Assembly: GCA_965238305.1 (NCBI GenBank)
Contig: CBDEHK010000001.1
Span: 449,355 to 513,354, forward strand
Source: Alphaproteobacteria bacterium
GTDB lineage: Bacteria; Pseudomonadota; Alphaproteobacteria; GCA-2731375
Reading direction: 5' to 3'
Length of the DNA: 64,000 bases
Shown here: piece by piece, positions 30,299 to 64,000 of the stretch
Layout of the letters: every line of letters begins with the position of its first letter
Numbering within the stretch: position 1 is the first letter of the stretch
Made by a program: the position numbers and the translations under genes
The notes under the pieces: generated by a model
Told to the model about the DNA's origin: nothing
Database searches by the model: none
Seen by the model: only the letters and a program-made list of their open reading frames with translations

Positions 30299-30367
30299 GA
30301 CGCTCCTGCTCTCCCTCCGAAGCTTGGTCAATACCGCCGTGCGCGTCTCCTGACTTAGGCTCATGGG

Positions 30368-30545
30368 TCCCGAGGCCTTCCCAGCAGATTAATCTGCCAG
30401 TGGCTGTTTCCCGGTTCCTCGCCATTCACAGTTGCGGGGGCAGTGTTGGAATTTCCATGATTTTTACCTGGAGCACCAACTTCCGCGCCGCAGCGGTCCA
30501 GGAAACTAGCACGAGAGGCCGGGCCAGAGCAATCGTGCTGGACGG
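30368..30545 (-). ncRNA. Cobalamin (AdoCbl) riboswitch upstream of cobU-cobW-cobN-cobO-cobQ
   Basis: Minus-strand read: ...GGTGCTCCAGG...CCCGCAACTGTGAATGGCGAGGAACCGGGAAACAGCCACTGGCAGATTAATCTGCTGGGAAGGCC, containing the B12 box GCCACTG and the CCCGCAACTGT element. Confidence 0.8.
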
Positions 30546-31311: not shown

Positions 31312-31584
31312 TTGAGCGGGTTTTCGGCCAAAATTTGCTGTTACGTTCAGAAGCAAACACTTCATCCACGACCGGACATTTGCAACATCTAGTTGTCCGG
31401 CCTTCGGACGGTAAACTGCGCCCCGTCATCGACGAACAACGGTAGGTAGTGTTTTCTAATTTAGCAACTTATTGTATTATAACAGTGCATATGAATAACC
31501 TTTAGTTGACAAATCTAATATATTTATGATTAGTAAATTTATATTCTATTAATCATTATTTTCTCGACGGAGTTTTTCACTGTA

Positions 31585-33387
31585 ATGTTGTATAAGTCGG
31601 GTAGCGAATTTCAAATCAATTCATTCGCCAGCAATAATCCAAATTCCGTCCGTCTTGCGGACCTTGATGACGGGACATTCGTTGCGGTTTGGCAGGGCAA
31701 CAGTGAAACCCAAGGCGACAGCTTTCCTTTGGACGTGTATGGCCAACGGTTCGACGCCGAGGGGAACAAAATCGGCGACGAATTTTTGGCCAATTCTACG
31801 ACAGGTGGTACCCAGTGGGTCCAGGACGTCACCGGCCTGGAAGGCGGTGGTTTCGTTGTCACTTGGCGTGATGGCAGCCCTGGTGATTCGGGTTGGTGGT
31901 CAGTTCGAGGTCAAATCTACGACTCAGACGGAAACCCTGTCGGTGGCGAGTTTGAAATACCAACCACCACAACGGACAATCAAAATCATCCTTCGGTCAC
32001 CAGCTTGGAAGACGGCGGCTTTGTTGCCGTTTGGAGCGACAGCAGCGCGACGGGCGATGACACATCTTTTGAGGCGGTTCGTGGCCAAGTGTTTGGCGCG
32101 AACGGCGCACCGGTCGGCGATGAGATATTGGTCAACACGACAACGAATGCGAGCCAATACGATGCAACTGTGCAAAGTCTGGAAGGCGGCGGTTTTGTTG
32201 TAGCTTGGGAAGACTATGGCGAGACCGGTGCAGACCTTTCCGGTCTTGCAATAAGAGCGCAATTGTTTGATTCGGCCGGAAACAAAGTTAATAGCGAATT
32301 TCTGGTCAACTCCTCAACTGAGGAACACCAATTCGATCCAGTTATCGGTGGCCTTCAGAACGGTGGGTTTGTTATCGTTTGGGTCGATGGAAGCGCTACA
32401 AACGGCGATTCCGATCATGCTATTCGCGGACAAATCTATGACGCAGACGGCGCGCCGGTAGACGGCGAGTTCTTAATCAATACTATAACCGCAGGAACGC
32501 AATCGGTCGCGTCGGTCATCGGTCTACAGAACGGCGGGTTTTTCGTCACATGGAACGACAGAAGCCTAAGTCCGGACGATCCGTCCGTAACCGCGATCCG
32601 CGGGCAGCTTTTTGACGCCAGCGGCGCGAAGTCCGGCGATGAGATTCTGGTCAATACCACGACCGACGGATGGCAGACGACATCTTCGATTACTCAATTG
32701 GAAAGCGGCGACATTGTTGTCGCCTGGAGTGATGGCAGTCAGTCCAGGGACACAATCCTTAATGGACAATTCTTTTCCTTTGATGATGGTGGTGGCACCG
32801 GCGGCGGTGGTGGCGGTGGCAGTGGTGGCCCGTCCCCGACCGGCTCCGCCGGCAATGACTTCATCGAAGGTGGTGAGTTCGGTGATGTGTTGGCGGGAAT
32901 GGCCGGGGATGACATTATATTCGGATTGGCTGGTACTGATATTATTTACGGCAACCAGGGCAGCGACATCATCTATGGCAACCAGGGCGAAGATGTCATC
33001 TTCGGTGGCCAGGGCAACGATATTGTCTTCGGCGGTCAGAACGCCGACGTCATCTATGGCAACCTTCAGAACGATGTAATTTACGGCAACATCGGCAATG
33101 ACGTTATCTACGGCAACCAGGGCGACGATGTAGTTTACGGCAACATCGGCAACGACGTGCTTTATGGCGGTCAGAACGATGACGTTTTATACGGTGGCCA
33201 GGATCAGGACACTCTATACGGCAACCTCGGCAACGATGTGCTGAATGGGAATTTGGGCAACGACATCCTGTACGGCGGCGCCGGCGTCAATACCATGATC
33301 GGCGGGCAAGGCGCGGACACCTTCTATGTCGATGGCGATGACGTGGTGCTTGATATGAGCGCGGAAGATACGCTGATATTTTTTTAG
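31585..33387 (+). CDS. RTX-type (haemolysin-type Ca-binding repeat) protein with N-terminal ~48-aa blade repeats (x8), probable T1SS substrate
   Basis: No signal peptide. About eight repeats of the pattern GGFVVxWxD...(A/S)(I/V)RGQ(I/L)FDxxGxxxGxEFLVNTTTxxxQ. A Gly-rich linker [17 protein letters not shown], then about 20 nonapeptide repeats GNQGxDVIYG. Confidence 0.75.
32930..33300 (+). repeat. Tandem 27-nt coding repeats (RTX nonapeptide units)
   Basis: Recurrent ggcaaccagggcgacgatgt(a/c)atttacggc-like units in the sequence. Confidence 0.6.
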
Positions 33388-36368: not shown

Positions 36369-36623
36369 CTATACATGACCTTCGAGCAAATCAGTTTCTC
36401 TGGGTCGATGTCCCTTGATTTTGATTTCGCCACGTGAGGATGTTTGATAGCGGTTGGAGAGCATTTCCCTGGTTTCTGCTGAAATTTGGGGTTGATCGGC
36501 AATGCCTTCGGATTCGATCTGGCTTGCGACATTCATAGTATCGCCCCAAAGGTCGTATGAGAATTTTTGTTTGTCGATCAAACCGACGATGACCGCGCTA
36601 GAATGCTCAGGAGAGGGCGTCAA
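36369..36623 (-). pseudogene. C-terminal remnant of a class III adenylate/guanylate cyclase
   Basis: GLIDKQKFSYDLWGDTMNVASQIESEGIADQPQISAETREML aligns with [42 protein letters not shown] of the intact cyclase at 56672-57919. The upstream part is replaced by the end of the iorB-like gene (17-nt overlap). Confidence 0.6.
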
Positions 36624-38844
36624 GAACCCTTTCCGGGGTCATAGGAAGCCTACGCATTCTAACACCTGTCAGTGCCGCAACAGCATTGGCTACCGGCGCA
36701 ACGCCCAATGTAACTCCCATTTCCCCTGCACCTCCCGGTGGGTTGTCCGTTGTCAAGACTTGCACATGTATATCTGGGACGTCCGACATACGCGGTATAA
36801 GATAATCGTGGAAGTTTGACTGCTGTACCACGCCGTCTTCCATAGTTATGCGTTCGCTGAGCGCCACACCCAAACCATAGATTATCCCACCTTCGATTTG
36901 AGCTTGTACAGTATCAGGCTGCACAGCCAAACCCGGATCAATGGCAGCCCAGATATTGTGAACTTTAATTGTCCCACTATCGCGATCAAGCGATACCTCA
37001 GCTACTGAAGCCATATAGCTGCCAGAGTTATGGACAAAACCAATGCCGAGAGCACGATCTTTTGCCACTTCGTGCGGCCACGCCGCCATCGCGGCAACTC
37101 TGTTCAATACAGCTAGTGCCCGCATATCGTGGCGAAGCAACCCCAATCGAAATTCCAAAGGGTCAACGCCTTTTTTAACGGATATTTCGTCTAGAAAAGA
37201 TTCGACGGCAAAGTTGTTGGTGGTGACAGATGTGCCGCGAACAGGGGCAAGCCGCATACCATCAACCTGCTTTATATGTTCCGCCAAGAAATTTGGGATA
37301 GCGTAGTCGATGTTAGAGCCATTGATTGACAAAAAAGGCCTGCTGCCAAAAGCTTCATACATCGAAGGATGACTAAAAGAAAAAGCGGTTTCGGATGCTA
37401 TTCTGTGGTGCAGGGCAATGATATTCCCGTCACGGTCAAAGGCGGCTCGTATGATATGTGCTGCCATGGGGCGAAAACGCCCGTTATGAACATCATCTTC
37501 ACGGCTCCAGATACATTTCACCGGCCTTCGGGATGCCTTCGCAAGCAACGCGGCATCGACGGTAAACTCCTGATCCTCATGGTTCCGACGCCCAAAACCT
37601 CCGCCCGAGAAACTACGGTGTAGGATGATCTTGTCCTCAGCCAAATCCAGGGCTTTAGCAGCGGCTGCGATTGCAAAGGTTGGAGATTGTGTGCCCACCC
37701 ACACATCGGCCCTGTCGCCAGCTTCATTCAAAGCAACCACAGCATTGAGAGGCTCCATCTGGGCATGGTAAGTATAGTCATGACGATACTGTCCTTCGAA
37801 AACTGTATCAGCTGCATCGAACGCCTTACGAATGTCGCCTGTGTCAGCAGGGTTAAAGTCGTTGGTGTGGGCAAAGGCGCTTTTGATTGAAAGATCATTT
37901 GCAGCCTCGGCGTATGAATCAAGTGCAACCTCGCTATTAAAACTGCCCGCGCCCTCGACAATACTCCATTCGACTTCGAGACTGTCCTTAGCTGCCAGTG
38001 CCGCTTCCATCGTTTCGGCTAAGATACCCACGCCGTGAGGAAGGACCACCGTTTTGACAAACCCGGGCACACCTGAAGCTTCAGCGGTAGAAACTTTCAC
38101 TGGCCGAGAGCCCTCAATCGGTGCCCGTAACACCACGCCATAGAGCATACCCTCAAGGCGCACATCGATACTGAATTCCGCCTTGCCGTTTACTTTGGCG
38201 GGTAAATCCACACGAGGTATATCTTTGCCAATGTAGCGAAATTCGCTCCATGGTTTGAGGTCATTTTTTGTAATCGCGGGTGTGGGATTTGGGTACTTTG
38301 CAAAGACAGCGATGTCGGCGAAAGTGATTTTGCGACCGGTTTTTTTATGGACGACCTGGCTTGGTTCTTCGCTTAGTTCAGAAACGGGCACATCCCAGTT
38401 AGTAGCAACCGCATTATGTAAAATTACTCTGATCTGGGCTGCTTGGGTTCTAATAAGAGCGAAATATCCGGCTGTACCGGCGCTCCCGCCTGTAAGCATA
38501 ACGCCATAGTAAGGATTGCCATATATCTTATCGATGGCAGGCGATGGCACCACCACGACGTCGGCCCAATCTGCGCCCAATTCGTCGGCGAAAACGAGAG
38601 GGAGCGCTGTTGAGGTACCCTGCCCAATTTCATCAACAGGGTAAACGATGGTGATTTTTCCATCAGTCCCTATTGTAACCCATGCGTCACTGATTTGCCC
38701 GTCACCCACCGCCAACGAATGTCCCCCCGTTGCTTTCAGGCCTAGCGACAGGGCAAATGTCAGGCCCGCAACTCCCGTATGGAAGTTTCGGCGAGAGAGT
38801 AACGGTCCAGATGAATTTTCGGTGCTGGCTAGTTGATCAACCAT
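36607..38844 (-). CDS. Molybdopterin-binding aldehyde oxidase/xanthine dehydrogenase-family subunit (isoquinoline 1-oxidoreductase beta-like), Tat-exported
   Basis: 745 aa; twin-arginine signal SRRNFHTGVAGLTFALSL; length and composition fit the IorB/PaoC-type large subunit. Confidence 0.7.
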   Translation of the reverse strand: MVDQLASTENSSGPLLSRRNFHTGVAGLTFALSLGLKATGGHSLAVGDGQISDAWVTIGTDGKITIVYPVDEIGQGTSTALPLVFADELGADWADVVVVPSPAIDKIYGNPYYGVMLTGGSAGTAGYFALIRTQAAQIRVILHNAVATNWDVPVSELSEEPSQVVHKKTGRKITFADIAVFAKYPNPTPAITKNDLKPWSEFRYIGKDIPRVDLPAKVNGKAEFSIDVRLEGMLYGVVLRAPIEGSRPVKVSTAEASGVPGFVKTVVLPHGVGILAETMEAALAAKDSLEVEWSIVEGAGSFNSEVALDSYAEAANDLSIKSAFAHTNDFNPADTGDIRKAFDAADTVFEGQYRHDYTYHAQMEPLNAVVALNEAGDRADVWVGTQSPTFAIAAAAKALDLAEDKIILHRSFSGGGFGRRNHEDQEFTVDAALLAKASRRPVKCIWSREDDVHNGRFRPMAAHIIRAAFDRDGNIIALHHRIASETAFSFSHPSMYEAFGSRPFLSINGSNIDYAIPNFLAEHIKQVDGMRLAPVRGTSVTTNNFAVESFLDEISVKKGVDPLEFRLGLLRHDMRALAVLNRVAAMAAWPHEVAKDRALGIGFVHNSGSYMASVAEVSLDRDSGTIKVHNIWAAIDPGLAVQPDTVQAQIEGGIIYGLGVALSERITMEDGVVQQSNFHDYLIPRMSDVPDIHVQVLTTDNPPGGAGEMGVTLGVAPVANAVAALTGVRMRRLPMTPERVLDALS

Positions 38845-38847
38845 AAT

Positions 38848-39318
38848 TTACCCCTCGTTTGCGATGCGCTCTATTGCGCGAATAATCCGTGGATAGGTGC
38901 CACATCGACAAAGGTTCGTAGTCATATGCTCCACAATCTCTTCGCGACTTGGATGGCTGTTTTTTGCCAGTAAATCTGCGGCACTCATAATTTGCCCCGA
39001 TTGACAATATCCGCATTGCGGTACCTTCTCCGAAAGCCACGCCTTTTGAACAGGATGACTGTAATCAGCTGACAAGCCCTCAATAGTTGTCACGGATTTA
39101 CCGCCTATTTCAGCGATACTTGTCTGACAAGAGAAGGTTCGATTCCCATCGACATGAACCATGCAGGCACCGCATAAGCCAGCGCCGCATCCAAACTTTG
39201 TGCCAGTCAGCCCTATATGTTCGCGGAGAGCCCACAGCAACGGTGTATCGGGATCGACAGAAAGGCTTGTTGATTTCTCGTTAAGGATAAAGGTAATTGG
39301 TTGATATGCTTCCTTCAT
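38848..39318 (-). CDS. (2Fe-2S)-binding small subunit of the molybdo-dehydrogenase (IorA-like)
   Basis: [23 protein letters not shown] and [12 protein letters not shown] motifs; start at MKEAYQ, preceded by an AGGGAAAAG RBS. Confidence 0.8.
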
Positions 39319-39450
39319 TTTCTTTTCCCTGATATTCGCGCAGTAATTTATGTTTCCGGCCACTTGACGGAAATCGCACCATAACTACTGGCCTAAAGAT
39401 AGGAAATCATCTAAAATTCATAATACTAATGATTAAAATCATATATAGGC

Positions 39451-40341
39451 ATGATTATGGACCTGAACGCCGTAAAGATTTTTGCAAAAACCGCTGAACT
39501 GTCCAGCTTCACAAAAGCTGCCACAGCCGTCAAAATGACACAGTCCGGCGTATCCCGTGCGGTCAGTCGACTGGAAGAAGATCTTGGTGTAAAACTGATG
39601 AACCGTACTACCCGCGGCCTGAACCTAACACACGATGGACAGGCTTTTTTTGAACGCTGCTCATTGTTACTGGAAGAACTTGAAGAAGCTAAACAACAAC
39701 TTATTGGACGCCAAGCGCAACCATCCGGTCATTTGAAAATCTCGTCTCCACACGGATTTGGAAAACTAATCCTCTCGCCAGCCGTAGCTCGGCTTTCTGA
39801 AAAGAATCCTGATCTTATTGTCGAAACCACGCTAACGGACCGCCTTGTCGATCTGATCGCTGAAGGATATGATGCCGCCATTCGCGTCGGGCAAATCCCT
39901 GATTCTCGTGTTGTCGCCAAACACCTGGGCACCATTCGCCTGGTGACCATCGCGTCGCCTACTTATTTGAATAAATTTGGCACCCCAAGGACGCCGGGCG
40001 ACCTGGCTCAACACAACTGCTTAAACATGCGTCTTCCTCGCACAGGGCGACTATATGAATGGCGATTCATTGAAGACGGCCACGAGCGTAAATTTTCCGT
40101 AACCGGTAATATAATATTGGATTCTGGCGATGCTCTTGTTGACCTGGCTGTTCGAGGCCATGGCATCACGCAAGCCCAGAGTTTTATGGTGACACAAGCG
40201 TTGGACAACAAACAGGTCGTGCCCGTGCTCTCCGCTTATGCGGCTAACAGAGGGCCTATTTCCCTAATTTACCCACAAAGCAGGCAACTTTCGTCAAAAA
40301 TCGGAGCCTTGACTAAAGCATTGAAAAACTTAAATTTTTGA
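39451..40341 (+). CDS. LysR-family transcriptional regulator (divergent from iorAB-like genes)
   Basis: FTKAATAVKMTQSGVSRAVSRLEEDLGVKLMNR HTH. Confidence 0.8.
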   Translation: MIMDLNAVKIFAKTAELSSFTKAATAVKMTQSGVSRAVSRLEEDLGVKLMNRTTRGLNLTHDGQAFFERCSLLLEELEEAKQQLIGRQAQPSGHLKISSPHGFGKLILSPAVARLSEKNPDLIVETTLTDRLVDLIAEGYDAAIRVGQIPDSRVVAKHLGTIRLVTIASPTYLNKFGTPRTPGDLAQHNCLNMRLPRTGRLYEWRFIEDGHERKFSVTGNIILDSGDALVDLAVRGHGITQAQSFMVTQALDNKQVVPVLSAYAANRGPISLIYPQSRQLSSKIGALTKALKNLNF

Positions 40342-40687: not shown

Positions 40688-40762
<75 letters not shown>

Positions 40763-40884: not shown

Positions 40885-41322
40885 CTAGATTGAAAACAAC
40901 AAGGTCGTGCAGTTGCGCCCGGCGACTTGTTGGTAGTCGATTTCATCGCTTAGGTTTTCGATCAAATGCAGGCCCAGGCCGCCGATTTGACGCTCTTCCA
41001 AGGCCCCGTCCAAGGAGGCCTGTTGGCTTTGTCGGGGATCGAACGGCCAGGCATCGTCAATGACGACAATTTTTAAGCTGCCACCCGCTTTCTCGCCGGC
41101 TGCCACGCCCGCTACCTCAATCGTGACGTCGATCAGATGAACGCCGTCGCGGCGGAAACCGTAACTGACCGTATTGGTCACCAGTTCCTCCAGCGCCAGG
41201 GTAATTCGATGGGCGGTTTTGGCGGCAATCCCCTGCGCCGCGCAATATTCGGCGATGGCGCGACCCAAACGCTGCACTTCGGCAAGATTGTTTTTCAGTT
41301 GCAGTTGAATGGGTGCCGACAT
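40885..41322 (-). CDS. Anti-sigma regulatory factor, RsbW/SpoIIAB-like serine kinase (HATPase_c)
   Basis: LALEELVTNTVSYGF...GGLGLHLIENLSDEIDY (N-box/G-box of GHKL ATPases). Confidence 0.7.
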   Translation of the reverse strand: MSAPIQLQLKNNLAEVQRLGRAIAEYCAAQGIAAKTAHRITLALEELVTNTVSYGFRRDGVHLIDVTIEVAGVAAGEKAGGSLKIVVIDDAWPFDPRQSQQASLDGALEERQIGGLGLHLIENLSDEIDYQQVAGRNCTTLLFSI

Positions 41323-41524
41323 CGGGGATCGTCGTTAAGTTGAAACTGTGCCGCTTGTGCCACAATTTGCACGCAAAGGGTAGTCCTGGCGCCAAATTCC
41401 GCAAACCATCGCGCTGGACAGGTCGCGGCAAGCTCATTATTCTATTCATATTCGTCAGAATTGAGGGATTCGCTTTGTCGATAGCCGGATGTCGACAGAA
41501 AAACTGATTTTTTGAGGACTGATT

Positions 41525-41965
41525 ATGAAAAAAGTATGTTTATTAGCGTTTGCCATGATGTTCGTGACCCTCACCGCTTGGGCCGAAAACAATGTCATCG
41601 GTTATGTCAGAACGACCAGCGGCGAAACCTTTCTAGTGCGGGATGCGGTCCGGATGGCGGCGCATATCGGCGATGTGGTGCAACGTGCCGATATCGTCGA
41701 AACCGGTAAAACCGGTACCATCGGCATCACTTTTGTTGATAACACGGTGTTTTCCGCCGGCCCCAACAGTTCCATTACGCTGGAGGAATATGTTTTCAAC
41801 TCGTCCAGTTTCGAAGGTAATTTACTGGCGCGCATGGACAAAGGAACTTTGTCGGTGGTGTCCGGTGACATCGCCCGCACCTCGCCAGAGGCGATGAAAA
41901 TCAAGACCCCGACGGCAATTTTAGGGGTTCGCGGCACCACCTTCCTGATCAAGGTCGAAGAGTGA
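41525..41965 (+). CDS. Secreted FecR-domain protein
   Basis: Signal peptide MKKVCLLAFAMMFVTLTAWA; FecR-like beta-rich domain (VRTTSGETFLVR...GITFVDNTVFSAGPNSSITLEEY...LGVRGTTF). Confidence 0.6.
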   Translation: MKKVCLLAFAMMFVTLTAWAENNVIGYVRTTSGETFLVRDAVRMAAHIGDVVQRADIVETGKTGTIGITFVDNTVFSAGPNSSITLEEYVFNSSSFEGNLLARMDKGTLSVVSGDIARTSPEAMKIKTPTAILGVRGTTFLIKVEE

Positions 41966-42009
41966 GAAATCCGCTCAGTAGAGCATGACAAACCGGGGGA
42001 TGATGGGCA

Positions 42010-42618
42010 ATGAACTGGCAGCCGATACGCAGACTAGGCCTAATCATCATGCTGGGCCTGTTCGCCACGGCGTGCGAAAGTGGCCTCGGTAAAACGGTCT
42101 TCGTGGTCCTCCCCGACGATGACGGCAAGGTCGGGCAAATTACCATCGACGATGGCAAAAGCAGCCAAACCCTGAACCAAGCCTATGCCACCGCCCATGT
42201 GCAAAACGGTGACTTGAAAGCGACGACGCTAGATCGGAAACAAATCGAACAAATCTTTGCCGAAGCCCTGAAAGCGCAACCGATCTTACCGGCCCGGTTC
42301 ACAGTTCATTTCGAAAGCGACACCGACGCCTTAACGGCCGAATCCATTGCCGTCCTCGATATGGTCGTTACAGATATTGGCCGTCGATCCTCTTATTTGG
42401 TCGAAGTCGTCGGCCATACCGACCGCAAGGCGAGCGATGCCTATAATACCGCGTTATCGTTGCGCCGGGCCTCGGTGGTGCGGGAATTTCTGATCGAAAA
42501 AGGCATCGCCGGCGATACCCTTGTCGCCACTGGCCGCGGTGAATTCGATCCGGTAATACCGACCGCCGACAAGGTCGCCGAACCCCGCAACCGCCGGGTT
42601 GAAATCACCGTTCGCTAG
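42010..42618 (+). CDS. OmpA-family (peptidoglycan-binding) lipoprotein
   Basis: Lipobox-like LGLFATAC; OmpA C-like domain VEVVGHTDRKASDAYNTALSLRRASVVREFLIEKGI. Confidence 0.75.
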   Translation: MNWQPIRRLGLIIMLGLFATACESGLGKTVFVVLPDDDGKVGQITIDDGKSSQTLNQAYATAHVQNGDLKATTLDRKQIEQIFAEALKAQPILPARFTVHFESDTDALTAESIAVLDMVVTDIGRRSSYLVEVVGHTDRKASDAYNTALSLRRASVVREFLIEKGIAGDTLVATGRGEFDPVIPTADKVAEPRNRRVEITVR

Positions 42619-42648
42619 GGCGCGTTCGCAATTCACCGAGCCGGCCCA

Positions 42649-42726
42649 CGCCCCCTGCCCAACCGCCCATAGGGTACCATTGTCAAGCTTTGCTTGCGGA
42701 GCAAGACGGTGGTTGGGCAGGGGGCG
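42649..42726. terminator. Large hairpin / bidirectional terminator between convergent OmpA-like and CHASE2-PP2C genes
   Basis: A 16-nt perfect inverted repeat CGCCCCCTGCCCAACC ... GGTTGGGCAGGGGGCG with a nested small hairpin CTTGCggaGCAAG. Confidence 0.5.
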
Positions 42727-42748
42727 TAGGCCGGTGATGCTTCAAGTT

Positions 42749-44950
42749 TCATGAGCTCTCGATCGCCTGAACATTATCTTGACCGATATATTTCACTGCC
42801 AGAATGGTGATGTCGTCCGAGGGCTCGGCCCCGGCGGCAAAATCGTGCACCGCCCGGAGGATAGCTTCGACCAATTCGCGGGCTGTGGTTTTGCCGCTCA
42901 CCAAGCGTAACAGATCCTCTATTCGCTCTAGCGTGAACATGGCCCGTTTGTCATTCATCGCTTCACTAACACCATCGCTGGACGAGACCAGGAAATCGCC
43001 GCTTTGCAAAGCGATTTCGGACGCCGTATAGGTAAAATCTTCCAAAATCCCTAGGGGCGGACCACCGGCCGTATGCAGCGCTTGCGCGGGGCTCCCCGGA
43101 CGCGCCAGGTAAGGGGTATCGTGACCGGCATTGCAGCACTCGACGAGCCCGGTGCGCAAGTCCAGAATACCCGCCAAGACGGTGACAAACATGGCTTGCG
43201 GGTTCTCTCGATAAATTTCCTTGTTCACTTCCGTCATGATCCGGGCAATGTCGCGGCGCCGGCGCAGCGCCCCACTTTTATAAAGCGCTTTCGACAGTGC
43301 CATGAACAAAGACGCCGGCACCCCCTTACCGGAGACGTCGCCAACCATGAAAAACAGATGGTCTTCATCCAGCAAGGCAAAATCGTAAAGATCGCCGCCA
43401 ACGGACCGGGCCGGCTCGATCAGCGCATGCAGATCAAAATCTTGCCGCGCCGGGAAAGCCGGAAAATCGCGCGGCAAAATTCCCATCTGAATTCGCCGCG
43501 CCGCCTCCAGTTCGCCTTGGATGCGGGCCGCGGCGGCGCGCTCGATACCCAGGTCATAATCGAGTTGCCGGCGCTGCCGGTCCGCCGCCGCCCACGTCGA
43601 CGCCGACATCACAATCAACAAAGCAACGCTGGTTCCGATCGCCAGACTGCTGTCAATCAGCCACAATTTCAGATCGTAGGCATACCAAGTCACCGCTGCC
43701 AGGATCAGAACAACGGCGACGGCCGGCATCGGGCTCCAAACCGGGCGGAACATCGGGATCAGCACAACCATGGCAAGGCCGGCCAAGGCGATCATCGCCA
43801 ACTCCATCCAGTGGGCGAAGCCTGGGCGTGTCAGGGCGTGACCGGGGGCCAGCATTTCCAATACCTGCGCATGAATTTCGACACCGGCCATTTGTGGCTC
43901 CAGCGGCGTTGCCCGTAAATCCAACAAGCCAGCGCTGCTGGTCCCTAAAAGGACAATACGGTTGGCAAACGTCGCCGAACTTAGACCACCGGCCAGTACT
44001 TCCTTGGCGGAAACATACCGGGCCGGCTGGTGGGCGGTGTAGTGGAGCCAGATCTGCCCGTCCGGCGCGGTCGGATAAAAGAAATCGGCGATCGAAATGC
44101 CCCGCACGCCGGCCTTGTCGCTATGCACTACAAAATATTTTTCGCCAAATGCAACCCGCAGAACTTCCAAGGTCAGAGACGGATAAATTTTCCCTGCCAC
44201 ACCGGCCAATAACGGCACCCGACGGACAATGCCGTCGACGTCGGAAGTCGAATTCAACACCCCTTCGCCGCGCGCTCGACGGCTTATCGCCGGCACGTTG
44301 CGTAAGAAGCTTTGGTAATGTGGGATAACCGCCGCAGGATCGTCGCCGCGTACAAAATAGACGGTTTCTGGCGCGTCCGTTTGGCCGCCGGCGACCGCCG
44401 CGCCAATTGCCACTACACCGACGACGACGGGATGGCCGCGAAAACTTTCTCCAAAGCGGATATCGTTGGATGGCATGTTGGCAAGTTCACGCGCCGCCGC
44501 CGCCGGTAGATCGGGAATTTCGGCTGCCAGATTATCCGGCGATAGTCGATCCGGTTCGCTAAACAGGAAGTCGAGCCCGATCGCCAATGGGCCCGGCGCG
44601 GCGATTTTGTCGATCAGCGCCGCCAGGCGATGACGCGGCCAGGGCCATTGGCCATGGGCCGCCAGGCTGGCTTCGTCAATATCGACAATGACCACCGGTG
44701 CATGCTTCCATTCTCTCGGTTTGATCGATTGCAGCACGTCAAATTGCTTGAGGCGGAGCCACTCCAGCTCGCTTGGATCACTCCACCGCACGGCCAAAAA
44801 TGCGATCAGAAACAACAGCGCAATTGGTGCCCCCTGCCAGCGTCCCAGACCCGCCAGCCCCAAACGTTCGAATGAGCCGGCGATCAGGCCGCTGGTCGGG
44901 CGATCTTGGGGTTCGGGTTTAACACTATGGTCCTGCGCCACGATTACCAC
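42749..44950 (-). CDS. CHASE2-domain membrane sensor fused to PP2C-type (SpoIIE/RsbU) serine phosphatase
   Basis: 733 aa; periplasmic CHASE2-like region followed by TM helices, and a C-terminal PP2C domain (GDVSGKGVPASLFMALSKAL...SSSDGVSEA...DDITILAVKY). Confidence 0.7.
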   Translation of the reverse strand: MVIVAQDHSVKPEPQDRPTSGLIAGSFERLGLAGLGRWQGAPIALLFLIAFLAVRWSDPSELEWLRLKQFDVLQSIKPREWKHAPVVIVDIDEASLAAHGQWPWPRHRLAALIDKIAAPGPLAIGLDFLFSEPDRLSPDNLAAEIPDLPAAAARELANMPSNDIRFGESFRGHPVVVGVVAIGAAVAGGQTDAPETVYFVRGDDPAAVIPHYQSFLRNVPAISRRARGEGVLNSTSDVDGIVRRVPLLAGVAGKIYPSLTLEVLRVAFGEKYFVVHSDKAGVRGISIADFFYPTAPDGQIWLHYTAHQPARYVSAKEVLAGGLSSATFANRIVLLGTSSAGLLDLRATPLEPQMAGVEIHAQVLEMLAPGHALTRPGFAHWMELAMIALAGLAMVVLIPMFRPVWSPMPAVAVVLILAAVTWYAYDLKLWLIDSSLAIGTSVALLIVMSASTWAAADRQRRQLDYDLGIERAAAARIQGELEAARRIQMGILPRDFPAFPARQDFDLHALIEPARSVGGDLYDFALLDEDHLFFMVGDVSGKGVPASLFMALSKALYKSGALRRRRDIARIMTEVNKEIYRENPQAMFVTVLAGILDLRTGLVECCNAGHDTPYLARPGSPAQALHTAGGPPLGILEDFTYTASEIALQSGDFLVSSSDGVSEAMNDKRAMFTLERIEDLLRLVSGKTTARELVEAILRAVHDFAAGAEPSDDITILAVKYIGQDNVQAIESS

Positions 44951-44956
44951 CCGCGC

Positions 44957-45916
44957 CTAAAGAGCAATATCCAAGCCGTCAAACGCCATCGTCACTTGCA
45001 GCTCACTTTCCGGCGCTGTTATTTGCAGATACCGCTTGGTCTCCTGCAGAATTTCGAACAATGCGGCGTCGCCGTTGCTGGGTTCATGATGGAATAGGCA
45101 AAGATTTTTCACTTGTGCCCGCTGCGCCAGTTCAACGGCAATAATGTTATTGGAATGCCCCCAGTCGGCTCGCACTGTGGCGGCGTCGGCTAAGGAATAC
45201 ATGGCGTCGAATATCAACAAATCGGCGGCGCGGATAAATTCTACAATTTCATCCAGTTCGGGCAGATCCTCCAGCCGATATTCCCCATCCGTGGAATAAA
45301 CCACGGATTTACCCCCATGTTCAAAGCGGTAGGCGTAAGAATCGCTATCGTGATGTTGTTTGATCGCCTTGACTTTCAGGCCGGCGATGTCATGGACCTG
45401 GTTCGCCGGCAGAGTGACGAAAGAGATTTCCGCCGCCAATTCGGAAAAATCGACAGGAAAATATGGCCGGCTTTGTTGGCATCTGAATATCTCTTCCAGC
45501 TGGTCATGGCATCCATAGATGATGATTTTGTTACCGGGAACATAAATCGGCGTGAAGAATGGGAAGCCCATAATATGATCCCAATGGCCGTGCGACATAA
45601 AGACGTGGAAAACCGATTTTCGGCCTGGCCAACGACCGCTCAACACCGCATTGCCGAATTCCCGCACGCCGCTGCCCATGTCGCAGATGATATATTCGTC
45701 CCCAACATCATCCAACTGCACGCAAGAGGTGCTGCCGCCATAGGTGCCGGCCACATCAAATGGCATCTCGTCAGCAACGAACCGAGCGATCTCGTCGTCA
45801 TTGGAAAAGGAACGCCCTTGGGCGGCGGCCACAGCAGAAATCAGATTTTGGTTAACTTGCTGGCTTGTGAGGGCAACCGGTAGCGACCCTCTTGTTCCCC
45901 AGAACCGCGCAAGCAT
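44957..45916 (-). CDS. MBL-fold metallo-hydrolase
   Basis: HxHxDH motif VFMSHGHWDHIMGFPFF. Confidence 0.7.
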   Translation of the reverse strand: MLARFWGTRGSLPVALTSQQVNQNLISAVAAAQGRSFSNDDEIARFVADEMPFDVAGTYGGSTSCVQLDDVGDEYIICDMGSGVREFGNAVLSGRWPGRKSVFHVFMSHGHWDHIMGFPFFTPIYVPGNKIIIYGCHDQLEEIFRCQQSRPYFPVDFSELAAEISFVTLPANQVHDIAGLKVKAIKQHHDSDSYAYRFEHGGKSVVYSTDGEYRLEDLPELDEIVEFIRAADLLIFDAMYSLADAATVRADWGHSNNIIAVELAQRAQVKNLCLFHHEPSNGDAALFEILQETKRYLQITAPESELQVTMAFDGLDIAL

Positions 45917-45967
45917 TTCATTCGCCCTCTTGACACTTGTGCCGTAAAATCGGTTTAGCTCAGCACG

Positions 45968-46360
45968 CTAGTTGTTGGCGTCATAACTTTCCACCGAATC
46001 TGGTGAAATTGACATGATGGCTTGCCGCACATCTTCAAACACATCGATAATTAGATTGAAACGGCTAATTTCAAAAATTTCACTTACTACCGGCGACAAA
46101 TTGGTGAGCGCCAATTGACCATTGCCGGCGCGGCATTGCTTCGCGACAATCATCAAAGCCCGCAGGCCGACGCTACTGACATAGTCGACGCCACTCATTT
46201 CGAGGATAACACGAGGCCGGTCCAGGGATTCTTGCGTGATCAGCAGCAAAAGCTGCTTTTGGAAAATCTGGCTTGTATCTTGGTCTAGGCGGCCGCTAGG
46301 ATTCAATACAAGAACATCCGCATAACGGATTTCCGCAAACTGAACACCACTATCGCCCAT
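45968..46360 (-). CDS. STAS-domain anti-sigma-factor antagonist (SpoIIAA/RsbV-like)
   Basis: About 130 aa; VILEMSGVDYVSSVGLRALM with the conserved phosphorylatable Ser context. Confidence 0.7.
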   Translation of the reverse strand: MGDSGVQFAEIRYADVLVLNPSGRLDQDTSQIFQKQLLLLITQESLDRPRVILEMSGVDYVSSVGLRALMIVAKQCRAGNGQLALTNLSPVVSEIFEISRFNLIIDVFEDVRQAIMSISPDSVESYDANN

Positions 46361-58994: not shown

Positions 58995-59113
58995 AATTGT
59001 TGATAAAATAAAATCGCATATTTCTTAACATTAAGGGAAAATTAAGTAGCAGCTGGCAATTCTGTTTGTGTTGAAACGTATTATCCAACAATTTATTACT
59101 AGGAACACATTTT

Positions 59114-59692
59114 ATGAAGAAACTCATAGCTGCTCTTTCAATGACCTCTGTCTTATTGATCGCGACCGCGGTTCACGCTGAAGGTGAACATGTTGCCCCG
59201 ATCAAGGCTTATATTGCCGAAAGCTTGAAAGCCGCCATGACCGAGACCGTCGTCGTCGAAGCGATCGTGGGGCAGAATACAGCCCATGCGAACCTCAACA
59301 ATGGCGACATTGACAAGCTGGACAAACAATGGCGGGCGGAGGTCGACGCCGGTAGTAAACCAATGATCGATGCTGTGACCAGCAACGCCCTTTCCGCCTA
59401 TTTGGTGGGAATGAAAGAGGCTGGCCAAGGTAAGATCACGGAAGTCTTCGTTATGGACAACAAAGGTTTGAATGTTGGCGTCAGTGACGTGACCTCCGAC
59501 TATTGGCAAGGCGATGAAGGGAAATTCAAAAAATCTTTCGGGGCCGGCGCCAGTGGTGTTTTTATTGACGACGTCGAAAAAGATGACTCAACTCAAAGTT
59601 TGCAGTCGCAAGCCAGTTTTACCATTGTCGATCCAGCTAGTGGTAAAGCCATTGGTGCCGTGACTTTCGGCATCAATGTTGACGAACTTTAA
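59114..59692 (+). CDS. Secreted/periplasmic protein, possible Cache/PAS-like ligand-binding module
   Basis: Signal peptide MKKLIAALSMTSVLLIATAVHA; about 170 aa mature alpha/beta-like domain; no confident family assignment. Confidence 0.4.
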   Translation: MKKLIAALSMTSVLLIATAVHAEGEHVAPIKAYIAESLKAAMTETVVVEAIVGQNTAHANLNNGDIDKLDKQWRAEVDAGSKPMIDAVTSNALSAYLVGMKEAGQGKITEVFVMDNKGLNVGVSDVTSDYWQGDEGKFKKSFGAGASGVFIDDVEKDDSTQSLQSQASFTIVDPASGKAIGAVTFGINVDEL

Positions 59693-59787
59693 ACCCGCAA
59701 TACCAACACATGTTGCCGAAAATCGGGCAAGCTTTGGCCTAGGCCTTGGCTTGCCCATTTTCCTTTCCCTTTAGAAAGCTCCTGCAA

Positions 59788-61482
59788 ATGTCTGTAGATA
59801 CCTCGCTAACCGAACAGAATTCGACCGAACCCGCTGAAAAGCAGAAAAAGTCACTCGGCCGAATTGTAGCGATCCAGATCGCCTTTGCGTTGTTGGTTGG
59901 TCTAATGGCCATGGCAGGTATTCTGTTGATGCAACAATCCCAGCAGTCGAAAGCGGCGGCCATGCGATCAGCGGCCGCCACCGCCGACCTGTTCGCTAAA
60001 CAAATTGCCGGGGCGGTGCGGTGGAAAAAAGTCGACTTGATTAAAACCTCTCTGGACGACCTAAGGGCGACACTGCCAACGAACGTCTCGAACGTTAATG
60101 TCTATGCGAAAGGCCAAAGCATCTTCTCTGGGGCGCCGGAAGAAGGGGGCGTGCCGGTATTCGACATCGACGGGCATGTCGCCAACAGCAGCGATTTATT
60201 GACGCGCGAAAAAGGAAACGTGATCGAAGTTGGTCGTTTCTATCTTGCCGTGCAGCCGATCCAAATGATCAAGAAGGGCAAAGCCATCAGGGTTGGCACG
60301 CTAGTTTTTGCCTGGAGCCATGCGGATGCCGACGCTGCCTTTCGCCAGGCGTTGACAGTCTCGGCCATTGTCACAGTGGTAACCACCGCCTTGATCGCGC
60401 TGCTGGTGGTATATTTGCTTCGACGCACCGCCTTGACCCCGATTAATCAGATCACCGAAACTATGCGCAGTTTGGCCAGAGGCAATCATGATGTCGACGT
60501 GCCCAACCAGGACCGGGTCGACGAAATTGGTGCCATGGCACGCGCCGTATTAGTCTTCAAGGAAGACCAAGCCCGTATCCAACAACTGGAAAAAGACCAA
60601 AAAGAGCAAGAAAAAGTTGCCCAGGAAAACAGCCAAAAAGAACGAACCCGTTTAGCCGATCAATTAGATGAGAAAGTCAAAGGCTCCGCCGCGACGATAG
60701 CGACGGCGGTGGACAAACTGCGTGAGGCCTCGCAGGTATTGGATCAGAACGCGGCGGTAACGTCAGAACGCAGCGACAATGTCGCGAAGACAATCGAGGA
60801 CGCCGCGGCGGCCGTTGAAGTTGTATCCGACGCCAGCGGGCAATTAGCCGAGGCCGTGTCCGAGATCGCGCAACAAGTCCGCCAAGCCCAGGATATCTCG
60901 GCGCAAGCTGTCGAGCAGGCCGAAGAAACCAATCGACGGATCGATAATCTGTCGGGTGCGGTGCAAAAAATTGGCGAAGTGGTTAATTTGATCAACGATA
61001 TTGCCGAGCAAACAAACTTGCTGGCGCTCAATGCCACCATCGAATCTGCACGTGCCGGTGAAGCCGGCAAGGGCTTTGCCGTGGTGGCCGGAGAAGTCAA
61101 AAGTCTGGCCAGCCAAACTTCCCGAGCGACGGATGAAATTGCTGCGCAAATAAACGAAGTGCGAAACGAAACCGAAGCGTCCGTCATCGCGATGCGCGGT
61201 ATCAACGATGTGATTGGCAATATCAATGAATTATCGGTGATGATTAGCGGCGCCGTTGAAGAACAAGGGGCGGCAACCCGGGAAATCGCTCAAAGCGCCG
61301 CCCGTGCCGCGAACAGCAACAACGAAATGCGCGAAAGCATTGGCGAAGTCGGCGAAATCGCTCAACGGACCGGCCACAGCGCCAGCGACGTACGCGACGT
61401 AACCGATGAATTAACCCAGGAAAGCGCCCAGCTTGCCGACGCCATCGAAAGCTTCCTACAGGTTATCCGCGCCGCCAAATAA
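59788..61482 (+). CDS. Methyl-accepting chemotaxis protein (two TM segments, periplasmic sensor, HAMP, MCP signalling domain)
   Basis: TM1 [25 protein letters not shown]2 [24 protein letters not shown]; conserved signalling hairpin [31 protein letters not shown]. Confidence 0.85.
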
Positions 61483-61600
61483 TGTGCGGCGGTCTATAGC
61501 GCCATCCGCATGTACACGCGCGCGAATGGCGGGTCTTTGCCGCCACCGGGGGCTGGGCAATAACAATTGCGTTGATCAGTAATCTTGTCGAGGGCAGCGG

Positions 61601-62029
61601 CTATTTTGTTACCAGACCCTTAAAAGATTTGGCCGCGATCTGTTTAAACACGTCCTTGCCCTGCTGAATTTGATTGTTATAGACCAAATTCCAATCGGTC
61701 GTGATCGCGCCGTTAGCATAAAAACCGGTCCAGCCTGTAATCGACATACAATTGGCTTGGGCGTTGTTCCAATTGACGCTCCACGAGATCAGGTTGGCAT
61801 AGACATATCCAACCGCATCATAGGCGATATTCTGGCAACCTGTGTTCGGCGCCCGGTTTACGTAACTGCCCGTCAACTCGCCAGTTGGCGAAATCGTATT
61901 GATGGTGAAAGTCGATCCATATTGGTTCTGCCAAGCCGATAACCCAGCCAGCTGGCTTTCCTCGCTCTGAGCGGTATAGCTAAAGAAAGCCAATGTGAAC
62001 GTCAGGATCAAACTCAAAATATGTTTCAT
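61601..62029 (-). CDS. Avidin-family biotin-binding protein (rhizavidin/hoefavidin-like), secreted
   Basis: Signal peptide MKHILSLILTFTLAFFSYTAQS; mature SAWQNQYGSTFTINTISPTGELTGSYVNRAPNTGCQNIAYDAVGYVYANLISWSVNWNNAQANCMSITGWTGFYA...TDWNLVY...QGKDVF. This matches the avidin/streptavidin beta-barrel signature (WxNQxGST, GxYxNR, SWxVxWxN, TGWTG, WNL) and the Cys pair of rhizavidin; GAGGAAA RBS. Confidence 0.85.
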   Translation of the reverse strand: MKHILSLILTFTLAFFSYTAQSEESQLAGLSAWQNQYGSTFTINTISPTGELTGSYVNRAPNTGCQNIAYDAVGYVYANLISWSVNWNNAQANCMSITGWTGFYANGAITTDWNLVYNNQIQQGKDVFKQIAAKSFKGLVTK

Positions 62030-62321
62030 TGTATTAGTTTCCTCAAATTTTAAGTTGTTTTATTGAACAAAATCAGAACCCAAAACAGAGATACAGACGT
62101 ATATTATTCTACATAAAGTAATTGAATGCACGTATTTTTATTATTTAAATACGGTTTATAATTTCCGTTTAAATTCGCGCAAGTCTAATTATATGACATG
62201 TAGATCCGGCCCCAACGCTGATCGTCGGGAAATTCTGAACGAAATAAAAACAGCCTGCGAAATTCTCGCCGCTTATTTTCATCAACTTGTCATGGGGGTC
62301 GTTTTCTATGTCAGGGTTAGC

Positions 62322-62774
62322 TCAGAGCGATTTTTTCATATCGACCCGATCGAAACCGCTTTCCTGGCCGCGGTGATATTCCCGCCAGCCTATTTTGCGG
62401 TAGAGCGCAAGGTTTTCAACCATTTTGATGTTGGTGTAGAGACGTATTTCGCGGTAAGCCATTTCACGTGCCTGCTGATCCGCCAATTCAAGCAGCGCGC
62501 GCCCTAATCCTTGGCCCTGCACGTCCGGATGGACGGCGATATTGTCGAGGAGCAGATGGTCCTCTCGCCGCATTAACACCAAAGCGCCGGTTAGGCGTCC
62601 GCCAACCTCGGCCAGCCAAACAATATCATTCCGGATTTGTGCCGCATGGTCGTCAACCATCGGTCCGGGTTCGCGCCCCATTCGCGTGATGTAATGGCGA
62701 TACGCGTCCGCCACCAAATCGGTCATAGCCGGCGCATCATCCGCCTCAGCACGTCGCAGGGTCCAGTTGTTCAT
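62322..62774 (-). CDS. GNAT-family N-acetyltransferase
   Basis: [14 protein letters not shown] acetyl-CoA binding motif (Q/RxxGxG/A). Confidence 0.8.
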
Positions 62775-64000
62775 TGATCGGGATCGCGCACCGCCCCATA
62801 GGCCGCAGAGCGGGTCATTTTGGCATAAGCCCGCAACGCCCGCGACACTGTGCGATCGCGGTCGATCGGCTGCCAGGCATTGCCTTCGCGCGCCACCATC
62901 GCTTGGTGGCGACGTTCAAGCTCCTGCGGATCGACGTTCAGGGTCAGCTTCCGGCCCGGGATATCGATCTCGATCTCATCACCGTTTTCCACCAAGGCGA
63001 TAAGGCCGCCTTCGGCGGCTTCCGGCGACATATGGCCAATTGACAAGCCGGAGGTGGCGCCAGAGAACCGGCCGTCGGTGATCAGGGCGCATTTTTTGCC
63101 CAAGCCGGCGGCTTTGATCATGCTGGTTGGCACCAACATTTCCTGCATACCGGGGCCGCCACGCGGTCCCTCGTAACGAATAACAACAACGTCGCCGGCC
63201 TTCACTTCGCTGCCGGCGATTCCGTCGGCGGCCTGATCCTGGCTTTCGAAAACCACTGCCGGGCCTTTGAACGACCAGATGCTTTCATCGACCCCGGCGG
63301 TTTTAACGATGCAACCTTCTTCCGCCAGATTGCCAACCAGCACGGCCAGGCCACCTTCTTTCGTATAAGCGTGCTCAATATCGCGGATGCAACCGCCTTC
63401 GCGGTCCAGATCGAGATCGGCATAGCGGTCATCCTGAGAGAAGGCGGTGATCGAAAAACGATTGCCGGGCGCGGCCTTGAAAAAATCGACCACACGCGCA
63501 TTGCTGCTGCGGCCGACGTCCCACATCGCCAGCTTATCGTCCAGATTATCGCCGGAGACGTCGTTGACGTCAATATTCAGCAAGCCGCCTTTTTCCAGCT
63601 CGCCCAGGATCGACATGACACCACCGGCGCGATGCACGTCTTCCATGTGATAATGCGGCACCGCCGGCGAAACTTTGCAAAGGTTCGGTACTTTCCGCGA
63701 CAGGCGGTCGATATCTTTCATGGTGAAATCGACTTCACCTTCATAGGCCGCCGCTAACAGGTGCAACACCGTATTAGTTGAGCCGCCCATGGCGATATCC
63801 AAACACATGGCGTTTTCGAAGGCGTCGAAATTGGCAATGTTGCGCGGCAGCACGCGCTCGTCTTCCAGTTCGTAGTAAGCCCGGGTCATTTCGACAATGC
63901 GCCGGCCGGCTTCCAGGAACAACTCCTTGCGGGCCCCGTGGGTGGCAACAATGCTGCCATTACCGGGTAGCGCGAGGCCCAGCGCTTCGGTCAGGCAGTT
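62771..64000 (-). CDS. ilvD: Dihydroxy-acid dehydratase (partial, 5' end outside window)
   Basis: C-terminal two-thirds of IlvD (…[11 protein letters not shown]-like [32 protein letters not shown]); the ORF continues beyond position 64000. Confidence 0.85.

Follow-up and report, generated by a model that had tools for sequence, protein, structure and literature searches.

What does a single small avidin gene do in the chromosome of an alphaproteobacterium, and did it arrive there recently? The question is raised by a minus-strand open reading frame (ORF) at 61601..62029 of a 64,000-nucleotide stretch of contig CBDEHK010000001.1 (assembly GCA_965238305.1, positions 449,355 to 513,354), which we refer to as the window and to which all coordinates below belong unless another locus is named. 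A sequence-only reading of this DNA had described the product as a secreted avidin of the rhizavidin/hoefavidin group and had proposed, from the AT-rich DNA beside it, that the gene was acquired horizontally. As judged from sequence and a predicted structure, the product is an avidin-family biotin-binding protein of the disulfide-clamped bacterial "dimeric" type, and we hold it highly probable that this small avidin leaves the cytoplasm and captures free biotin outside it. The family is a known one, in which the protein is a new and divergent member; standard annotation would already call it an "avidin/streptavidin family protein", and no new mechanism is revealed by it.

A predicted avidin barrel with a full set of biotin-contact residues

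The ORF starts with ATG and encodes 142 aa in the ORF list of the window (the full translation is MKHILSLILTFTLAFFSYTAQSEESQLAGLSAWQNQYGSTFTINTISPTGELTGSYVNRAPNTGCQNIAYDAVGYVYANLISWSVNWNNAQANCMSITGWTGFYANGAITTDWNLVYNNQIQQGKDVFKQIAAKSFKGLVTK; the signal peptide is counted in this length and the stop codon occupies 61601–61603). All of the motifs quoted in the sequence-only reading are present in the translation, namely W33-Q-N-Q-Y-G-S-T-F41, T53-G-S-Y-V-N-R59, T63-G-C65-Q-N with N93-C94 further on, S82-W-S-V-N-W-N-N89, T98-G-W-T-G102 and W113-N-L115. That reading had proposed a comparison with the Pfam avidin family, a structure prediction and an inspection of the biotin-contact residues as checks on itself, and all three bear it out. 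The protein scores 51.6 bits (E=1.4e-13) with PF01382 (Avidin), for which the gathering score is 24, over profile positions 4–98 of 116, and a phmmer comparison with all PDB chains matched 159 avidin or streptavidin sequences, among them wilavidin (E=8.5e-30), shwanavidin (~3e-26), rhizavidin (5e-24), and afifavidin and hoefavidin (both ~1e-22), with further matches to agroavidin (1e-19 to 1e-18) and to bradavidin 2 and streptavidin (1e-8 to 1e-7). Pairwise identity is 53% with shwanavidin, 52% with wilavidin (110 aligned residues), 50% with rhizavidin and 38% with streptavidin, and the streptavidin equivalog model of NCBIfam, NF047623, gives 31 bits, below its cut-off of 300. A single-chain AlphaFold2 model built on 42 sequences has a mean pLDDT of 87.3, with values of 95–98 in the residue blocks spanning 31–130 (core ~97), and predicts an eight-stranded antiparallel up-and-down β-barrel. 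Foldseek superposes this model on wilavidin, shwanavidin and rhizavidin at target-normalised TM values of 0.85–0.93 and a root-mean-square deviation (rmsd) of 1.0–1.4 Å, and its best 50 matches in the PDB are all avidins or streptavidin hybrids (rmsd 1.0–3.0 Å).

The nearest solved relatives overall are wilavidin and shwanavidin, ahead of rhizavidin and hoefavidin, by E-value and by Foldseek; the earlier placement in the dimeric, disulfide-bearing group was right and is refined in this respect. Wilavidin (PDB 7ouq, 7our, 7p8y) is the top match in both sequence and structure (TM 0.90–0.93, rmsd 1.0–1.3 Å) and resembles the query in its Cys pair, in having no Trp in the loop between strands β7 and β8 (L7,8), in its short L6,7 (12 residues, W100–W113) and in its C-terminal tail, whereas its β7–β8 connection is five residues longer (17 against 12), its lid residue is Tyr rather than Thr63, and it has Trp and Phe where the query has Tyr75 and Trp83. 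Shwanavidin, from Shewanella denitrificans (PDB 3szh, 3szi, 3szj, 3t2w), is a dimeric type with the disulfide (PMC5398887) and is like the query at a TM of ~0.87, but its L6,7 and L7,8 loops are longer by 4 and 5 residues respectively and it has Phe43 in place of Thr63; the PDB entry 3t2x is an F43A variant of shwanavidin described there as a "low affinity mutant". Rhizavidin from Rhizobium etli (PDB 3ew1, 3ew2), which is secreted and dimeric, shares the WQNQ.GST, YVNRA, TGCQN and WNL motifs, and its pairing of a lid Thr with a Leu is matched by Thr63 and Leu115; it differs in loops L6,7 and L7,8, both of 16 residues where the query has 12, and in its location on plasmid p42d (NC_004041.2), the query gene being chromosomal and placed among housekeeping genes. 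Hoefavidin and afifavidin (PDB 4z6j, 4z27, 6rtq, 6hdv, 6hds) are alphaproteobacterial, disulfide-clamped and equipped with C-terminal tails, as is the query, but are less similar to it, and the L7,8 of afifavidin is longer (16 residues). Streptavidin and chicken avidin are alike to the query in fold and core biotin contacts, although streptavidin has no disulfide at the positions of Cys65 and Cys94.

Each biotin contact of streptavidin is either kept in the query or substituted as it is in rhizavidin. Residues N23, L25, S27, Y43, S45 and W79 of streptavidin correspond to N35, Y37, S39, Y56, N58 (Asn in rhizavidin as well) and W87, and S88, T90, W92, W108 and L110 to S96, T98, W100, W113 and L115, while the correspondence of D128 to D126 comes from aligning QGKDVF of the query with QGQDTF of rhizavidin. 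Two alignments of relatives (36 and 42 sequences) both have S39, N58, C65, W87, C94, W100 and W113 as invariant positions, and N35 is invariant or almost so in both. These conserved residues suggest that each barrel subunit would bind one biotin in a high-affinity-type site complete within the subunit, with N35, S39, Y56, N58, S96, T98 and D126 as the likely polar contacts and W87, W100, W113, L115 and Y37 as a predicted hydrophobic cage.

The site would be closed by a disulfide-held lid. In the alignments C65 and C94 fall on the cysteines that form the L3,4–L5,6 disulfide of rhizavidin, wilavidin and shwanavidin, a bond that is the hallmark of dimeric avidins and holds the L3,4 lid closed (PMC5398887); in the query Cys65 (L3,4) and Cys94 (L5,6) would be expected to pair in the oxidising periplasm and to keep the lid shut in the manner of rhizavidin, shwanavidin and hoefavidin. 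At the lid position ahead of the first Cys the query has Thr63 (TGCQN), as does rhizavidin, where shwanavidin has Phe and wilavidin Tyr. Rhizavidin and hoefavidin have this Thr "pinching" against a Leu of β7, the rhizavidin pair being Thr48–Leu104 (PMC5398887), and the counterpart of the Leu in the query is L115.

The predicted architecture also speaks to assembly. Streptavidin and avidin are obligate tetramers in which Trp120 or Trp110, respectively, is contributed by the L7,8 loop of a neighbouring subunit (PMC5398887). The segment W113-NLVYNNQIQQGK-D126 of the query has no Trp, and W120 of streptavidin lies outside the aligned segment, leaving it with no equivalent. Because there is no Trp120 equivalent and the β7–β8 turn is only two residues long in the model, the site is likely to be complete in one subunit and a dimer-based assembly is to be expected, that is, a dimer or a higher assembly of dimers rather than a tetramer of the streptavidin type.

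The claim that the protein is secreted is likewise consistent with its features. A Sec signal peptide is predicted at residues 1–22 (61964..62029, minus strand), composed of MKH with Lys2, a hydrophobic stretch I4–F16 (mean Kyte–Doolittle hydropathy 2.48) and an A20-Q-S22 cleavage motif with small residues at −3 and −1 (A-Q-S↓E); this leader has a pLDDT of 57–66 and aligns with the A-x-A ends of the leaders of homologues. The 142-aa precursor would be exported via Sec and cleaved after Ser22, giving a predicted mature protein of 120 aa, 13.1 kDa and a calculated isoelectric point of ~6.4. Its β-barrel core, residues 23–131 (61637..61963, minus strand), holds the biotin contacts and the Cys65–Cys94 pair, and it ends in a flexible tail of residues 132–142 (AAKSFKGLVTK; 61604..61636, minus strand), which has a low pLDDT of 63–76 and is disordered, with no secondary structure, in the AlphaFold2 model. 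A K-S-L-like motif of this tail is found again in homologues, and tails at the same position were removed in the PDB "short" constructs of hoefavidin, afifavidin and wilavidin.

The tail brings in another view of the protein, in which the avidin fold serves a natural ligand other than free biotin (a peptide, its own tail or a small molecule) and biotin is bound weakly or incidentally. Some avidins bind intrinsic peptide ligands, bradavidin its Brad-tag and hoefavidin its own C-terminal tail (PMC5398887), the query keeps an 11-residue flexible tail of its own, and three of its residues depart from consensus: Asp71 replaces a nearly invariant Pro, Tyr75 a Trp and Trp83 a Phe. All of its biotin-contact positions are nevertheless kept or substituted as in proven biotin binders, and hoefavidin and bradavidin still bind biotin even though intrinsic peptides occupy their sites, so that a different natural ligand appears very improbable.

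A short β7–β8 connection and few relatives

One feature that sets the query apart within the family was measured as the number of residues between the equivalents of W113 and D126 in an alignment of 177 family members. This β7–β8 connection has 12 residues in the query against a family mode of 17, and only six sequences, the query included, are as short as 12 among those with both anchors aligned. It is also the shortest in comparison with the five solved avidins checked (16 residues in rhizavidin and in afifavidin, 17 in wilavidin and in shwanavidin, 19 in streptavidin), and in the model it is reduced to a two-residue turn, N118–N119. The combination of Tyr75 and Trp83 is common to the query and its relatives P0002, P0006 and P0012, most other relatives having Trp and Phe there, and a neighbour-joining tree groups the short-loop sequences, though with poor bootstrap values of 6–33% for the groupings that contain the query. 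The query, P0002, P0006 and P0012, possibly together with P0007 and P0011, could represent a distinct "minimal" avidin type whose oligomeric state could be unlike that of any solved avidin, and which could be marked by the two-residue β7–β8 turn, a short L6,7 and, in the first four sequences, the Tyr75/Trp83 swap in β4/β5. We think such a type rather unlikely, and the "minimal-loop" subgroup is offered as a lead and not as a result, the evidence for it in the sequences being the short loop and the signature residues. If the type did exist, it might be, for example, a strict non-associating dimer or a high-affinity monomer, and would offer a compact, low-valency biotin binder of ~12–13 kDa.

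The rarity and patchiness that the sequence-only reading ascribed to bacterial avidins are evident in the databases. A HMMER search over 1.84 billion cluster representatives (clusters at 50% identity) recovered 232 clusters at E≤1e-3, of which 105 reach E≤1e-10, and the highest identity of a representative to the query is 53%; in a collection of 5.8 billion clusters the query is a singleton whose next relative is 51% identical, and among ~15 billion proteins there is no relative above ~53% identity. Those relatives that carry a name are scattered over Chitiniphilus, Thiobacillus, Candidatus Nitrosoglobus, Varunaivibrio, Rhodobacter and a cyanobacterial metagenome-assembled genome (MAG). An avidin peptide scan of 185,579 species genomes gave 64 pattern matches with no relative among them, a search for avidin relatives in a phage collection gave no match, and exact-sequence look-ups of the avidin and of two proteins encoded near it, the GNAT and p192 proteins described below, returned no record. 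The best-scoring match in the 1.84-billion library, P0005, is a protein of 405 aa in which a leader is followed by three avidin domains in tandem, all of them with the Cys pair, and resembles a natural "single-chain" multi-avidin; a look-up of its genomic context returned no record.

Composition and the question of recent transfer

The sequence-only reading had inferred horizontal acquisition from the AT-richness of the flanking DNA, and the view to be weighed is that of a single-gene islet taken up recently, with the AT-rich pocket as its mark. The pocket itself is real, with 26% GC at 62030–62190 against 55.4% for the window, and none of the 55 window ORFs has a lower total GC than the avidin gene (0.473, z=−2.6). 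The pocket is, however, not unusual for the window, in which other intergenic regions have 27.7% (58995–59113), 31% (39364–39450) and 37% (31312–31584) GC. Nor is the deficit of the gene found where codon choice would be expected to reveal it: at third codon positions its GC (GC3) is 0.601, where the window averages 0.614 (z=−0.23), and by leave-one-out synonymous-codon likelihood the gene is the 14th lowest of 56 (z=−0.65), both of which are host-like and run against the inference of horizontal acquisition. The deficit lies instead at first codon positions (GC1 0.39), and this is because of the amino-acid composition of the protein, in which Asn, Thr, Ala, Ser and Ile abound and Arg occurs only once.

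A low GC1 is common to nearly all of the avidin genes examined. The closest homologue, in an unrelated context, has a GC1 of 0.35 and a GC3 within the range of its neighbours, and 257–275 nt upstream of it have 29–30% GC; over 64 metagenomic loci the GC1 of avidin genes is 0.34–0.55, and the gene lies on average 3.9 GC points below its locus. A methodological caution follows for small genes in general, in that low GC may stem from amino-acid composition, and an inference of horizontal transfer calls for a prior check of GC3.

That the family as a whole is mobile is plain, and this, together with its rarity (232 clusters, with named relatives across Beta-, Gamma- and Alphaproteobacteria), counts in favour of recent arrival. 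Relatives at 42–44% identity are found on 42 plasmids, 37 of them predicted to be conjugative, including rhizavidin on p42d of R. etli. In several metagenomic contigs the avidin gene has a GC3 0.23–0.44 below that of its neighbours (L097, 3379–3855; L105, 2321–2779; L111, 2097–2546; L113, 6001–6450; L114, 425–877; L149, 1134–1577), as in L097 (0.40 against 0.70) and L105 (0.24 against 0.68), and these deficits are a clear compositional signature of recent avidin transfer in other organisms; genes that look freshly transferred have GC3 values of 0.24–0.40 beside neighbours at 0.66–0.70.

The surroundings of the window copy give a different picture. The nearby genes are chromosomal ones (hemC, hemD, tsaD, gpsA, an EVE-domain protein, adenylate cyclase, amidohydrolase, p192, an MCP, a GNAT and ilvD), and neither integrase, transposase, tRNA gene nor flanking direct repeats were found next to the avidin gene, the only tRNA gene of the window being 21 kb away. 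Comparison with related genomes was made through p192, a protein encoded together with the MCP chemoreceptor on one side of the avidin gene. In the two nearest p192–MCP loci (a Rhodospirillales MAG and an ENA contig, with p192 ~62% identical) the pair is kept and everything beyond the MCP has diverged; they have no avidin gene downstream, which might favour recent insertion, but they have no GNAT–ilvD at this site either. Since synteny is lost beyond the MCP and p192 is only ~62% identical, the absence of avidin there says little. A chimeric query of GNAT and p192 placed the nearest relatives of the neighbourhood at ~62–64% identity (a Rhodospirillales MAG, Pelagibius, Kiloniellaceae), and in a scan of the 185,579 species genomes with ilvD the best of the matches listed was 68% identical, the matches coming from mixed classes. 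The avidin family is mobile, yet the copy in the window is without sign of recent arrival, and we judge the islet explanation to be improbable.

A better candidate for a horizontally acquired islet lies elsewhere in the window, at 36607–40341, where genes for a molybdopterin hydroxylase large subunit, a [2Fe-2S] subunit and a LysR regulator have the lowest GC3 (0.465–0.487) and the worst codon-usage fit in the window; this trio adjoins the only tRNA gene, tRNA-Thr (40688–40762).

Gene setting and physiological role

The avidin gene is preceded by an intergenic region of 292 nt and 34.9% GC (62030..62321, minus strand), the presumed site of its promoter, in which a Shine–Dalgarno-like GAGGA (62040..62044, minus strand) can be read 10 nt before the ATG. 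Beyond it lies the GNAT gene (62322–62774, minus strand), which the sequence-only reading correctly placed next door. It overlaps ilvD by 4 nt, and ilvD itself (62771–64000), listed as a 383-aa ORF from a TTG at 63922, has a frame open to the end of the window and is therefore cut by the window edge rather than being a truncated gene. A terminator-like hairpin and T-run follow the GNAT gene (62247..62269, minus strand, with the hairpin part at 62269–62257), by which the ilvD–GNAT transcript would be set apart from the avidin gene. On the other side a weak terminator-like hairpin, a candidate of 5 pairs with a loop of 8, lies at 61477..61504 (minus strand), ~97 nt past the avidin stop codon, and abuts the stop of the convergent MCP gene. 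We infer that the avidin gene is a stand-alone unit between the convergent chemoreceptor gene and an ilvD–GNAT operon, which may be expressed from its own AT-rich upstream region and ribosome-binding site. The GNAT belongs to the ilvD operon and its adjacency to avidin is coincidental; no recurrence of a GNAT of this type beside other avidin genes was seen in the metagenomic avidin loci, and a GNAT found three genes from avidin in L120 proved unrelated to that of the window (21% identity). A perfect 7-bp inverted repeat, CGTATTT-N9-AAATACG, at 62131–62153, ~100 nt before the avidin start, could be an operator, but by a rough estimate such a repeat is at chance level in AT-rich DNA, and no like repeat is evident upstream of the homologue; we make no claim for it. 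An Rfam search of 61400–62400 at a permissive threshold gave just one chance-level match.

It might be asked whether the gene is expressed at all or is a relic or chance ORF, given that a promoter consensus was not found and that the protein forms a cluster of its own in the databases. The reading frame is, however, unbroken and comes with a leader and a ribosome-binding site, its codon usage is host-like, and all of the family-invariant residues are kept although no relative is more than 53% identical, which together leave very little room for this explanation.

For the role of the exported protein we propose extracytoplasmic capture of biotin, with a slight lean towards a reservoir or scavenger function for the producer. 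The lean comes from rhizavidin being the only bacterial avidin whose role has been tested genetically. Knockout of rhizavidin in R. etli led to a faster loss of growth in biotin-free serial subculture, which was rescued by biotin or by complementation, and was interpreted by its authors as pointing to biotin storage and conservation (PMC8914248).

The principal competing view is that the main role is antagonistic, the protein being secreted to starve biotin-auxotrophic competitors or grazers rather than to store the vitamin. This biotin-starving, "antibiotic" function is the classical view of streptavidin and avidin, and it draws on the same molecular evidence, read from the sequence, as the storage role, namely secretion and a high-affinity-type site. 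A role in defence or competition was also discussed by Laitinen et al. (2021), with defence-related Gene Ontology terms enriched near avidin genes (PMC8033661). Against it, no companion antibiotic or toxin genes were found nearby, a Sec leader alone delivers a protein of a Gram-negative bacterium to the periplasm, release to the medium being conjectural here, and the sole reported knockout phenotype of a bacterial avidin points to storage (PMC8914248). Antagonism as the main role is a possibility to be taken seriously, if not the one we favour; withholding biotin from competitors is about as plausible as a reservoir for the producer, and the two functions are not exclusive.

Several observations weigh against the interpretation of the gene as an expressed, dimer-forming avidin with a part in the biotin economy of its host. 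No gene for biotin synthesis, transport or regulation is present in the 64-kb window, and no BioR box (TTATMKATAA, with one mismatch allowed) was matched within it, so the context ties the avidin to no biotin physiology. A scan for the sigma-70 consensus upstream of the gene gave no minus-strand match. The non-consensus residues Asp71, Tyr75 and Trp83 could alter affinity. The storage role, carried over here by analogy, is known from a single rhizobial auxotroph only. Wilavidin, the nearest solved relative, is described as a hexamer (a hexamer of dimers), so a simple dimer is not assured for the query.

Comparison with other avidin genes is similarly reticent about context. In a set of 46 distinct metagenomic avidin loci, the neighbours that recur all belong to two lineage-specific syntenic blocks, of which the genes with a Pfam match (Ppnp, VF530, Ogt, a thioesterase and a RIO kinase) are of housekeeping types and two others have no Pfam match; there is no biotin gene among the recurrent neighbours.

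The wider window contains other features of interest. Next to the avidin gene, at 59114–61482, the 192-aa secreted-looking p192, which has no Pfam family, is paired with the HAMP-MCP chemoreceptor, and the conservation of this pair in the nearest Rhodospirillales relatives (L083, 8606–10972; L085, 10001–12369) suggests a two-component sensory unit, perhaps of a periplasmic partner and its receptor. A large cobalamin biosynthesis cluster (cbtA, cobT, cobS, cobQ, cbiD, cobK and several precorrin methylases) extends over ~9.6–30.4 kb, and a cobalamin riboswitch (79 bits; 30345–30484, minus strand) heads a cobU–cobW–cobN operon. A 600-aa protein with seven matches to RTX calcium-binding nonapeptide repeats is encoded at 31585–33387, directly after the AT-rich region at 31312–31584. 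A partner-switching-type set at 40885–46360 comprises an anti-sigma-like HATPase_c_2 kinase (40885–41322), a CHASE2–SpoIIE phosphatase (42749–44950) and a STAS protein (45968–46360), with a FecR-domain protein and an OmpA-family protein sitting within it.

Avidins are workhorses of biotechnology, in which there is demand for low-valency binders like rhizavidin, MAPS vaccines being one example. As a deep-branching singleton with a short β7–β8 turn, the protein described here is a reasonable candidate for biochemical characterisation and could be a useful compact biotin binder. For the family, it adds a chromosomal, host-adapted avidin in a seemingly poorly sampled Rhodospirillales-like alphaproteobacterium, and in this way bears on what bacterial avidins do.

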